Sequence record: PX974237.1
From: a phage
DNA length: 44,742 nt
Reading direction: 5' to 3' (one strand)
Under the pieces are notes generated by a model. It had not been told where the DNA came from. It did no database searches and saw only the letters and a program-made list of their open reading frames with translations. This document shows positions 7,439-29,224 of the stretch, in pieces (position 1 is the stretch's first letter; the number at the start of each line of letters is the position of its first letter). A program made the translations under genes and the position numbers.

Positions 7439-7503
7439 ACCAAGTAATAAGAATAAAGGCACAACCCTCCCCGAAGAATCACAACGGCAACGTAACTAAT
7501 CTC

Positions 7504-7532
7504 TTGCACACCCCAACATAATAGGATACTAT
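7504..7532 (+). promoter_or_regulatory. Early promoter (TTGCAC-17-TACTAT), conserved family
   Basis: TTGCAC 7504-7509, TACTAT 7527-7532; about 38 bp near-identical to minus-strand promoters at 19051-19079 and 29089-29117. Confidence 0.55.
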
Positions 7533-7566
7533 TCACTTATCGAAACGAGACATAAGGAATTTAGAA

Positions 7567-7998: not shown

Positions 7999-8156
7999 GA
8001 GAAGCATTCGAACGATGGGCCGTCGTCGAGGGTCTGCCGGTTAATAAGGGTTCGAAGAAAGAGTACCTGAACGTTAAGACGCGTCTCGCGTGGCGGGCGT
8101 GGAAAGCTGGTGCGAATGTAATGGCTGGCGCATTTGAGAAGAGAGGCGATTTATGA
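7995..8156 (+). CDS. Hypothetical early protein (53 aa)
   Basis: ATGA start-stop overlap with upstream gene; MREAFERWAVVEGLPVNKG... Confidence 0.4.
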   Translation: MREAFERWAVVEGLPVNKGSKKEYLNVKTRLAWRAWKAGANVMAGAFEKRGDL

Positions 8157-8332
8157 GCAAGTGGATTAAGTGTAGTGAGCGGATGCCTAAATATGGGGAG
8201 TATGTCATTGTCTATGTCCGCGCCGGGTACAGCTATATAGCAAGATACAACGGTGACTTTGTCTGTGATGAATATGTTAAGTGCGCCGGGGTGACCCACT
8301 GGATGCCGTTACCCGAGCCGCCGGAAGTGTGA
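8153..8332 (+). CDS. DUF551-like phage protein (59 aa)
   Basis: MSKWIKCSERMPKYGEYVIV...VTHWMPLPEPPEV matches the DUF551 signature (W-x-C-x-ER-P, THWMPLP). Confidence 0.5.
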   Translation: MSKWIKCSERMPKYGEYVIVYVRAGYSYIARYNGDFVCDEYVKCAGVTHWMPLPEPPEV

Positions 8333-8479
8333 TGTTCAATAGTTTGGGATTTTACTGAGTGACTTACGCTGCTACACAGCAGCGTATCATTTTTCTCATT
8401 TTTGTTCTATTTCACCAAACGCAACAATCGAAGCGACTATTGCAGGAGATGCAACAATACAAACACCAATAAAATTTAC

Positions 8480-8508
8480 TTGCACACTAAGATAGAATAG
8501 GCTACTAT
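8480..8508 (+). promoter_or_regulatory. Early promoter (TTGCAC-17-TACTAT)
   Basis: TTGCAC 8480-8485, TACTAT 8503-8508, then conserved TCAtTTAC motif. Confidence 0.5.
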
Positions 8509-8539
8509 TCATTTACACGAACGAGAGGAGAGACAGAAG

Positions 8540-8758
8540 ATGTTCCTGGAATGCAAATCCTATGATGACTATCGGGCGCTGACTAAAAACGACCTGTATC
8601 ACCTCAAAGAAGACGGCGATGAGAGCCGCTGCTACATAATAGACGACAACGGCACTGAACTTGATGTCTATTACACTGGGTACGGTCGATGGGCGCTATC
8701 CGCAGACGATGACTTTGTGTTTGAAGAATATAACGGGGAGGAGTCGGAAGATGAGTAA
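8540..8758 (+). CDS. Small highly acidic protein (72 aa)
   Basis: ORF with GAGAGGAGAG RBS directly behind an early promoter; about 30 percent Asp/Glu, C-terminal EEYNGEESEDE. Confidence 0.55.
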   Translation: MFLECKSYDDYRALTKNDLYHLKEDGDESRCYIIDDNGTELDVYYTGYGRWALSADDDFVFEEYNGEESEDE

Positions 8759-9053
8759 CAAAAACCAAGTATTCGAGTACCTGATTGACCAACTACGGCA
8801 GCAAGTAAATAACAACCAGTGCGAAGACCTGGCGCATGAGGTGCAGTCACTTAAGAATCAGTTACGTGATGCTTCGGCGCAGATTAAGGAGTTGTATGAG
8901 GCACTGGATGCAGAGCTTAAATACAGCCGTAAGTTTCAAGAAGAGCAATCTGGCCGCAGGAAAGAAGATGCTCATGAATGTAGGCACGAGTGGTCCCGGT
9001 ACATCGTACACCCTCACAGAAAGGTATGCTTGGTGTGCGGAGTAAAGAAATGA
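8751..9053 (+). CDS. Coiled-coil protein with C-terminal Cys/His zinc-ribbon-like module (paralog of 9255..9554)
   Basis: ATG at 8751 overlapping upstream stop; C-terminus HECRHEWSRYIVHPHRKVCLVCGVKK. Confidence 0.5.
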   Translation: MSNKNQVFEYLIDQLRQQVNNNQCEDLAHEVQSLKNQLRDASAQIKELYEALDAELKYSRKFQEEQSGRRKEDAHECRHEWSRYIVHPHRKVCLVCGVKK

Positions 9054-9253
9054 CCAGCATCTTATTCATCTGGGTACTGTCCGCGGGCCAGATGCACCTC
9101 GCGGCATCAGAAACGTTTTACTCAATGGAGGCGTGCCAGTCGGCTGCCCGCGCCGCAGAGAACGCGCACTTTCTGTTTCAGGGTGACAAGCCCATCGATT
9201 CAGAGGTACGCGCTATCTGCTCACCTAAGCGACTTGGTAAACAGGAGAAATAA
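9050..9253 (+). CDS. Small protein with hydrophobic N-terminus (signal-peptide-like), 67 aa
   Basis: ATGA overlap with upstream gene; MTSILFIWVLSAGQMHLAASE... Confidence 0.4.
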   Translation: MTSILFIWVLSAGQMHLAASETFYSMEACQSAARAAENAHFLFQGDKPIDSEVRAICSPKRLGKQEK

Positions 9254-9254
9254 C

Positions 9255-9554
9255 ATGGTACAGAGATATACCTACGACCAGATATTCGGGTTTACTCCTG
9301 ATGTTGAGGGCGTGTTAGTGCTTTACGAAGATTACGCGAAACTTGAAGCTGAGTTACAGAAATACAAAGACCAGTACCCTGATTACGTCGAGTGCGTGAA
9401 CTGTGGGTCGGTTACACATGTGGAGGGGGTCGAAGACGCTATGGGGCAATCCGGTTGCCGTAAAGAAGACGCCAAAGAATGTGAACACGTGTGGAATAGG
9501 TACATTGTACACCCTCACAGAAAGATATGCTTAGTATGCGGGGTGAAGGAATGA
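9255..9554 (+). CDS. Protein with C-terminal Cys/His zinc-ribbon-like module (paralog of 8751..9053)
   Basis: ATG at 9255 with AGGAGA RBS; C-terminus KECEHVWNRYIVHPHRKICLVCGVKE nearly identical to upstream paralog. Confidence 0.5.
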   Translation: MVQRYTYDQIFGFTPDVEGVLVLYEDYAKLEAELQKYKDQYPDYVECVNCGSVTHVEGVEDAMGQSGCRKEDAKECEHVWNRYIVHPHRKICLVCGVKE

Positions 9555-9844
9555 CACTTGCAACTGACATCCTGAAACGAAGCGGCCTTGCGCCGCTGTC
9601 ACCGAGAGCTAAAACACAGATATACAAGCGGCGCCATAACGCGCTGTACCCAGAGATACAAGAACGGCGTAAAGCTATCCGCGCCTGTGGATTCCAGAAC
9701 GGAAAGGCCGTGAATCTCGGGGAGTTTAAAACACAGGAACGCGCGGCAATCGCTAATCGGTTATTTAATTACTGGAAATCGCTCGGATACGATGATATTC
9801 CGACTAAACCGCAGAGACGACAATACATCTGGCGTCATAAATAA
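9551..9844 (+). CDS. Hypothetical basic protein (97 aa)
   Basis: ATGA overlap with upstream gene. Confidence 0.45.
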   Translation: MTLATDILKRSGLAPLSPRAKTQIYKRRHNALYPEIQERRKAIRACGFQNGKAVNLGEFKTQERAAIANRLFNYWKSLGYDDIPTKPQRRQYIWRHK

Positions 9845-19023: not shown

Positions 19024-19050
19024 GACGGCCTCCCCGGTTCGATAGAATGA

Positions 19051-19079
19051 ATAGTACCCTATTATATTGGGGTGCGCAA
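19051..19079 (-). promoter_or_regulatory. Early-family promoter (TTGCGC-17-TACTAT) driving the membrane peptide and lipoprotein
   Basis: Minus-strand -35 at 19079-19074, -10 at 19056-19051; spacer accccaatataataggg nearly identical to promoter at 7504-7532. Confidence 0.55.
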
Positions 19080-19145
19080 ACTATTTGTTTATGTATTCCG
19101 GTTATTCCACTCAATTGTAAATGTTGGAATAAACTATTCGAATAG

Positions 19146-29047: not shown

Positions 29048-29088
29048 GGTGTAGCTCCTGTTTGGGATAACATCGTTGGTGTAAGTGA

Positions 29089-29117
29089 ATAGTACACTAT
29101 TATATTGGGGTGTGCAA
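29089..29117 (-). promoter_or_regulatory. Early-family promoter (TTGCAC-17-TACTAT) driving the imm / phosphoesterase / phosphatase / kinase cassette
   Basis: Minus-strand -35 at 29117-29112, -10 at 29094-29089; spacer accccaatataatagtg nearly identical to 7504-7532 and 19051-19079. Confidence 0.55.
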
Positions 29118-29224
29118 GTAATGTGATAGAATAATTTTGCGCCTAGTGTCGCACACGAAAAGCGGGTGGTTCCCGTCTGGCGCATTAACCTTAACCCGTA
29201 ACCTCTTAACCAAAGGATTAAAGA

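Follow-up and report, generated by a model that had tools for sequence, protein, structure and literature searches.

Two small neighboring genes of a Kagunavirus-type phage of E. coli, called genes A and B here, end in the same short module with four conserved cysteine and histidine residues, and this module recurs on a range of otherwise different proteins in related phages. Both genes lie in sequence record PX974237.1, a stretch of 44,742 nucleotides (nt) that was analyzed as a whole and is referred to below as the window (see table 1 for coordinates). We see about an even chance that the duplicated tail is a mobile, zinc-stabilized, partner-binding cassette that is swapped by recombination at conserved junctions. 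Our commitment to partner binding is made with modest confidence. Searches of curated families, solved structures, and folds assigned no function to the genes. The case is mainly one of ordinary phage domain-cassette mosaicism in genes of unknown function, and it sets aside the notion of a local duplication.

The window matches 263 phage records at 80–96% identity, nearly all from siphoviruses of Escherichia and Salmonella in the subfamily Guernseyvirinae (Kagunavirus, Jerseyvirus). The best long match has 90.6% identity and covers 82% of the first 25 kb of the window. From these matches we take the window to be a Kagunavirus-like genome that is itself absent from the collection searched. Kagunavirus and Jerseyvirus phages are used in phage therapy and in synthetic-phage work.

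Two Genes with a Common Tail

The last 35 residues of the two gene products align without gaps, with 28 identical and 31 similar positions (BLASTP E 8e-21), and outside this tail neither BLASTP of the proteins nor blastn of the 5′ parts found any similarity. An earlier note on this DNA had described near-identical C-terminal modules, with the consensus H/E-C-x-H-x-W-x-RYIVHPHRK-x-CLVCGVK, on N-terminal parts that differ; it was right on all three points. At the DNA level, positions 8945–9054 pair with 9446–9555 (110 nt, 78% identity), and a MAFFT alignment of the tail DNA over 137 nt has a mean column identity of 83%. The DNA relatedness proposed earlier is real, but its start at 8956/9457 had been placed about 10 nt too far downstream: similarity begins at codon Q66 of gene A and Q65 of gene B (8946/9447) and extends over the stop codon and the ATGA with which the start of the following gene overlaps it. 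The copies are 501 nt apart on the same strand, and a six-frame scan of the window found the shared motif nowhere besides genes A and B.

The two copies differ at 24 nucleotides, of which 8, 3, and 13 fall at first, second, and third codon positions, respectively, resulting in 11 synonymous and 7 nonsynonymous codon changes. By the method of Nei and Gojobori, this corresponds to 0.143 nonsynonymous substitutions per nonsynonymous site (dN) and 1.40 synonymous substitutions per synonymous site (dS), a ratio of 0.10; within each lineage, dN/dS is 0.16–0.22. Copy B is 96–99% identical at the DNA level to the B-borne copies in four of six other contigs (L002, L006, L031, L032), and 84% and 76% identical to the more divergent B-borne copies of L003 and L004. 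For copy A, identity to the A-borne copies in L007 and L008 is 86%. Because each copy is nearer to same-position copies elsewhere than to its partner and dN/dS is low, these comparisons show the A-borne and B-borne tails to be old and separately evolving lineages, both intact, with the peptide under strong purifying selection.

This bears directly on the possibility, raised in the earlier note against its own reading, that the tails stem from a recent local duplication of which one copy is decaying or unexpressed. The short distance between the copies on one strand, and the arginine that replaces the linker cysteine in copy A, would suit such an origin, but 78% DNA identity, a dS of about 1.4, a dN/dS of 0.10, and the nearer relatives at the same positions elsewhere contradict it. 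Both open reading frames (ORFs) are intact and retain all ligand residues, GGAGG/AGGAG Shine–Dalgarno (SD) sequences stand 8–12 nt 5′ of both ATG codons, and the arginine variant of the linker recurs in many members of the family. We regard a recent duplication as refuted by sequence comparison and as very improbable. The start codons agree with those of hundreds of homologs, which begin MSNKN... in the case of gene A and MVQRY... in the case of gene B, although the longest mechanical ORFs begin farther upstream (TTG 8661 and GTG 9183, respectively).

The same comparison disfavors the idea that the repeat is kept as a DNA or RNA element, for translational coupling or as a recombination site, with the likeness of the peptides as a by-product. 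The similarity does cross the stop/ATGA overlap and includes the SD sequence of the downstream gene, as such an element might, but the differences lie mostly at third codon positions, most of the codon changes are synonymous, and the ligand pattern is invariant across tail classes with unrelated DNA. We consider this explanation close to negligible.

A Small Unit on Several Scaffolds

Homolog searches returned 949 proteins with gene A as the query and 418 with gene B, and a survey of units and scaffolds was made of 240 sequences among the matches listed. Proteins of this family have a fixed order, comprising a conserved N-terminal scaffold, a conserved linker with the consensus (E/G)QSGCRKED(A/T)QE, and then zero to three tandem units. 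Each unit has ∼25 residues of the form C-x-H-x-W, 8–12 residues, and C-x2-C-G. When 30 diverse units are aligned, the C, H, C, and C residues are invariant, W and G show at least 90% conservation, and each class has its own loop between the two knuckles; the four ligands, two in each knuckle, are invariant also across 49 full-length A proteins. We class the unit as zinc-ribbon-like, a mini-domain with a CHCC site, on the basis of this ligand pattern and a predicted hairpin. We infer that it binds one zinc ion and folds as a β-hairpin knuckle. Both copies in the window belong to the class RYIVHPHRK.

For gene A, AlphaFold2 (AF2) predicts a helix over residues 2–66, with a predicted local distance difference test score (pLDDT) of ∼82–96 over residues 1–60, falling to ∼64 over residues 61–70, followed by a flexible linker and a small β-hairpin (81–83/91–93) at pLDDT 59–76. 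The helix is probably a coiled coil since hydrophobic residues are spaced by three and four from L27 to L56 in a heptad pattern, and the protein is probably a dimer through this coiled coil. Among 49 homologs, the first 48 residues of gene A hardly vary. In the predicted coiled coil, C24 lies at a core heptad position and H29 follows five residues on (residues 8–43; window 8771–8880), and in a dimer this pair could be an interchain disulfide or a metal site. Gene A matches the phrog_6094 profile over residues 1–99 (E 4.3e-38), and its closest protein in a set of 5.8 billion proteins is 84% identical, the exact sequence not being there.

The AF2 model of gene B, of low confidence (62), has the same C-terminal hairpin as that of gene A. 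Residues 1–60 of gene B match positions 1–60 of the 60-position profile phrog_29624 (E 3.2e-43), and the tail (residues 52–99) matches the tail of phrog_6094 (E 6.9e-9); both PHROGs are annotated “unknown function”. Its closest protein in the same set is 98% identical, again with the exact sequence absent. In most relatives, the N-terminal 60 residues constitute a free-standing protein of 57–60 amino acids (aa), a short form that ends in ...GGGGTGGAGTGATG and resembles the ...GGGGTGAAGGAATGAC ending of the long form. The MVQRY family to which gene B belongs is often tandemly duplicated in relatives, counting the copies downstream of the 67-aa gene that lies between genes A and B here (L003, L007, L009, L012, L018, L022, L026, L030, L034, L036, L038). 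Hybrids that start like B and continue as the A coiled coil also occur (SHAK7693 gp69, P0174/P0177), the join linking ...LQKYKDQ to LRD....

The earlier note's proposal of one zinc-ribbon-like module attached to different N-termini extends well beyond this pair. Within the Guernseyvirinae, cassettes are found on at least five N-terminal scaffolds behind the same linker, including the A coiled coil and the B protein. Others are a Jerseyvirus N-terminus (S119 orf56, L005), a DUF551 domain (P0359) that occupies precisely position A, 5′ of the 67-aa gene, the small MKQYDEVTL protein P0266, and P0335, a further long coiled coil. A DUF551 protein is also encoded in the window, two genes 5′ of the cluster that holds genes A and B (8153–8332, Pfam E 7e-17), and in one metagenomic relative (L061, 246–551), a fusion of DUF551 with a CHCC unit stands in place of gene A. 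The linker can also be followed by other cassettes, namely a different Cys-rich unit, a half unit, or a β domain of ∼60 aa. The units surveyed form 24 sequence clusters, 5 of which are common to the A and B scaffolds. Across the family, the N-terminal scaffold is the conserved part and the C-terminal cassette the variable part, which fits a specificity cassette on a scaffold that stays constant.

The promiscuity of the unit could be read in another way: as a structural cap that merely stabilizes tiny proteins or shields their C-termini from host proteases and has spread because it recombines easily. Its presence on so many scaffolds is in keeping with this, as is the fact that many B genes do without a unit, and retention would be favored by the 3′ junction, which doubles as the SD sequence and start of the next gene. 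Against such a role, loops are conserved within a class (dN/dS 0.1–0.2) and very different between classes, which exceeds the needs of a bare fold, and tandem arrays of two or three different classes would be hard to explain. We think it improbable that the unit is only a cap.

Distribution among Relatives

The module is present in 57 of 50,697 phage records, always one per genome. A census script was applied to 61 related loci, 50 of which had been retrieved via the conserved 67-aa protein; since it uses regular expressions on stop-to-stop frames, divergent units may escape it. In this census, position A nearly always carries units, of varied classes, and gene B is mostly the short form without a unit. 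The RYIVHPHRK class occurs on A only in two loci (L007, L008) and on B only in six (L002, L003, L004, L006, L031, L032), and the window alone has it on both genes when compared with the 61 census loci and the 57 phage records. At frequencies of ∼3/59 on A and ∼6/59 on B, about one co-occurrence per ∼60 genomes is to be expected by chance, so that the double occupancy is no evidence of selection. Having this class on both scaffolds is unusual, yet roughly at chance level.

Kagunavirus and Jerseyvirus records such as AV104, Bas74, EF2-1, and S119, in which the proteins of PHROG 6094 and PHROG 29624 are labeled “hypothetical protein”, share the synteny of the window, 67-aa protein and lysis cassette included, and differ from it in that only the window carries the same unit class on both genes. 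A more ambitious reading of this pattern is a combinatorial specificity-cassette system, in which more than 20 mini zinc-ribbon units, with conserved recombination junctions at their ends, are dealt among constant scaffolds and retarget small intracellular proteins to different host factors, for example defense or housekeeping proteins. If so, placing the same class on two scaffolds would aim two activities at one host target. We consider a system of this kind unlikely.

Junctions and a Proposed Cassette Exchange

Both ends of the cassette are conserved. Among 45 distinct linker DNA sequences, the majority-base frequency is 0.78–0.88 over ∼36 nt as compared with 0.40–0.49 in the flanks; this set was picked by a 7-residue peptide motif, and only positions outside the corresponding 21 nt test this without bias. 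Many classes close, at the 3′ end, with C-G-(V/L)-K-(K/E)-stop, where the stop overlaps ATGA and the SD sequence of the next gene lies within the last codons; the similarity between the A and B copies of the window spans this junction. Two short conserved junctions around a variable core provide the conditions that homologous recombination needs for cassette exchange, and cassettes may have been swapped between genes and genomes in this way. Phage receptor-binding proteins exchange cassettes in a comparable fashion, with a conserved scaffold, exchangeable C-terminal modules, and short conserved flanking DNA, but the cassettes described here are mini-domains of ∼75–100 nt on small nonstructural proteins.

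In the mobile-cassette reading that we favor, the Guernseyvirinae draw on more than 20 classes of the unit, joined in zero to three tandem copies to several scaffolds. The aromatic-rich, class-specific loop would be the surface that binds a partner, either protein or nucleic acid, and the scaffold would contribute a constant property, dimerization in the case of gene A and another constant activity in the case of gene B. As both genes carry the same class with its class-specific loop, they may be directed to one partner in this phage. We predict that the two products are accessory host-interaction factors as opposed to core replication or virion proteins.

Several points weigh against this proposal. 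The AF2 score of the unit is just 59–76, a first knuckle of the form C-x-H would be uncommon in a classical zinc ribbon, and the unit stays below the threshold of every Pfam zinc-ribbon model. Within a class, the loop could be conserved through folding constraints in place of a binding surface. Selection by peptide motif inflates linker conservation inside the 21 nt that code for the motif, and the conservation of the linker could reflect constraint at the protein level and not a recombination site. The possible escape of divergent units from the census belongs here as well.

If the cassettes are partner specific, they would constitute a compact natural library of zinc-stabilized binders, with ∼950 and ∼420 distinct public homologs of genes A and B, respectively, and would offer a handle on the host factors that Kagunavirus and Jerseyvirus phages manipulate.

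Comparison with Known Families

For genes A and B and their neighbors, Pfam, PHROGs, NCBIfam, and PADLOC yielded no match that points to a function, and searches of the literature on Kagunavirus and Jerseyvirus zinc proteins, Guernseyvirinae anti-defense, and the HEWD domain found nothing on the cassette family. All matches of window proteins, Guernseyvirinae members, and 30 isolated units to Pfam zinc-ribbon models fall below the gathering score; these sub-threshold matches are to Zn_Ribbon_TF, DZR, A2L, Zn_Ribbon_Prim, uS14/S29, and GATA zinc ribbons. P0270, a distant repeat protein from outside the Guernseyvirinae, passes the cutoffs of three short zinc-ribbon models. A PDB sequence profile search with the unit found generic CxxCG knuckles only (E ≥ 0.012), and one with the B family found no match. 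Foldseek with the gene A model gave a best E of 2.5 against PDB and, against BFVD, only uncharacterized Guernseyvirinae homologs. PADLOC returned only coiled-coil matches over the helix (GajB, JetC; E ≥ 2.6e-4) and nothing outside the coiled coil.

The unit resembles zinc-ribbon and rubredoxin-knuckle domains in having four ligands in two short knuckles ∼10–15 residues apart, and in its C-x2-C-G second knuckle; a β-hairpin is predicted between the knuckles at pLDDT 59–76. It differs from Zn_Ribbon_TF, DZR, Zn_Ribbon_1, and A2L_zn_ribbon in that the first knuckle is C-x-H plus a conserved Trp and not C-x2-C, and in ending 3–4 residues past the last Cys. The H-E-W-(D) that follows a Cys is reminiscent of the name-giving motif of the HEWD domain (PF20576), and the HEWD profile matches 1 of 30 units (E 9e-4), the remaining 29 and both window copies giving no match. 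Coiled-coil-MYND adaptors of the BS69 type have no sequence or specific fold match and serve as an analogy only.

Membership in two families was rejected. Gene B residues 32–82 score only 19.5 bits against Lar (PF14354), below the cutoff of 28.6 (E 1.2e-3), and P0173 scores 13.8 bits, likewise below the gathering score. Lar is similar to gene B as a small, Cys-rich zinc-ribbon protein of phages and prophages, but the match spans the C-x2-C of the B scaffold (C47 and C50) plus only the start of the unit. DksA/TraR (PF01258) has no profile match to gene A or B and no specific fold match, and its C4 ligands set it apart from the CHCC cassette.

Could the two genes belong to an anti-defense family, as the earlier note suggested, the shared tail targeting a host immune protein and the N-terminal parts acting as different inhibitory effectors? 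Anti-defense genes are known from loci of this kind, with small, highly mosaic accessory genes and variable cassettes; the diversity of cassettes, together with purifying selection within classes, would fit adaptation to variable host targets, and the weak, sub-threshold Lar match of gene B points the same way. Against this, neither gene has a significant match to known anti-defense or defense proteins in PADLOC-DB, Pfam, or NCBIfam, and neither N-terminal part, a plain coiled coil in gene A and a ∼60-aa protein in gene B, carries an enzymatic signature. Here it is also the scaffold that is conserved and the cassette that varies. Kagunavirus phages are reported to be highly sensitive to restriction-modification and variably sensitive to Old (PMC11990801), which argues both against an anti-defense family and, more narrowly, against a Lar-like anti-restriction role. 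On balance, we find an anti-defense function doubtful.

Similarly, the proteins might be nucleic-acid-binding regulators whose units bind DNA or RNA in the manner of phage Mu Com or ribbons of the TFIIB/primase type, and that tune phage or host expression from a place just before the lysis genes. R, K, H, and aromatic residues abound in the RYIVHPHRK class, arrays of one to three units resemble modular recognition, the genes lie directly 5′ of a holin–endolysin cassette, and the sub-threshold matches are all to nucleic-acid-associated zinc ribbons. However, every one of these matches is sub-threshold and driven by the generic CxxCG knuckle, there are several acidic unit classes, such as VMHDVDDFQTCSKCG, and no conserved candidate target site came to light, no search aimed at one having been made. 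This explanation, too, strikes us as unlikely, and we retain partner binding by a mobile cassette as the preferred reading.

Beyond the family, an exhaustive search of 1.84 billion representatives by profile yielded just 146 proteins with the unit motif, none of which has a known function. They comprise tandem repeats in small phage-like proteins, membrane-anchored proteins with two units, giant proteins, and Firmicute lipoprotein-like repeats. The giant proteins (P0248, P0257, P0283, P0334) have 3,500–4,500 aa and C-x-H-x-W...C-x2-C repeats, and arrays of the form H-x-W-x2-A-T-C-x2-P-x-T-C-x2-C-G are seen in secreted or Firmicute lipoprotein-like proteins (P0280, P0289, P0296). The repeats of both groups apparently belong to no curated family, only C1_1 being marginally above its cutoff through summed repeats. 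The gene context of one repeat protein, P0262, gave no clue to function.

The Gene Cluster and Its Surroundings

Genes A and B are the second and fourth of five ORFs (8540..9844) that are translationally coupled, with stops overlapping starts (table 1). On the same strand, the lysis cassette follows directly after the cluster, whose order is kept in relatives: a unit-bearing gene, the 67-aa gene, the MVQRY gene, the 97-aa gene, and the lysis cassette. In most loci with an identifiable upstream ORF, the gene directly 5′ of the 67-aa gene bears a unit, whatever its scaffold. Some relatives have HNH homing endonuclease genes in or near the lysis cassette (L006, 3492–4025; L005, 2809–3102), which the window does not.

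Table 1. Features of the gene A/gene B cluster and its 5′ flank, in window coordinates
Feature	Position	Strand	Description
Terminator-like hairpin	8365–8386		Just before the promoter-like element
Promoter-like element	8479..8511	+	TTGCAC-N17-TACTAT inside CTTGCACAC-N8-AATAGGnTACTATTCA; 5′ of the five-gene cluster
First cluster gene	8540..8758	+	72 aa, acidic, no family; stop overlaps gene A start
Gene A	8751..9053	+	ATG 8751, TGA 9053; 100 aa; PHROG 6094; helix, linker, one CHCC unit
Linker of copy A	8946..8978	+	QSGRRKEDAHE; 5′ junction of cassette; DNA island conserved family-wide
CHCC unit of copy A	8979..9053	+	C77-x-H79-x-W81 ... C93-x2-C96-G97; class RYIVHPHRK; stop overlaps ATG 9050
67-aa protein	9050..9253	+	PHROG 3766; signal-peptide-like N-terminus; two or three Cys
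Gene B	9255..9554	+	ATG 9255, TGA 9554; 99 aa; “MVQRY” protein; C47-x2-C50-G, linker, one CHCC unit
Linker of copy B	9447..9479	+	QSGCRKEDAKE
CHCC unit of copy B	9480..9554	+	C76-x-H78-x-W80 ... C92-x2-C95-G96; class RYIVHPHRK; stop overlaps ATG 9551
Last cluster gene	9551..9844	+	97 aa; PHROG 9632, unknown function; then holin/holin/endolysin cassette from 9920

The product of the gene between A and B, which the earlier note had taken for a small protein of secreted type, does open with a hydrophobic, signal-peptide-like stretch, MTSILFIWVLSAGQMHLAAS, without a positive n-region and without a lipobox. Its conservation extends from Kagunavirus to Jerseyvirus, with 55–99% identity in 48 of 50 loci. 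An AP2-like label for the 97-aa protein, suggested by the look of its GKAVNLGEFKTQERAAIA stretch, found no support in Pfam or PDB sequence searches. The product of the first cluster gene is 93% identical to its Bas74 ortholog (5 differences in 72 residues).

The 33-nt promoter-like element 5′ of the cluster has four copies in the window (7503–7535 and 8479–8511 on the + strand, 19048–19080 and 29086–29118 on the − strand), against none expected from 100 shuffles, and is also present in the divergent control region. Each + strand copy precedes the first gene of a cluster and has a common 5′ leader (the 48-nt repeat D2). The copy at 8479–8511 may act as a promoter, and early expression of the cluster 8540..9844, which the earlier note assumed for genes A and B, is plausible, although the cluster adjoins the lysis cassette.

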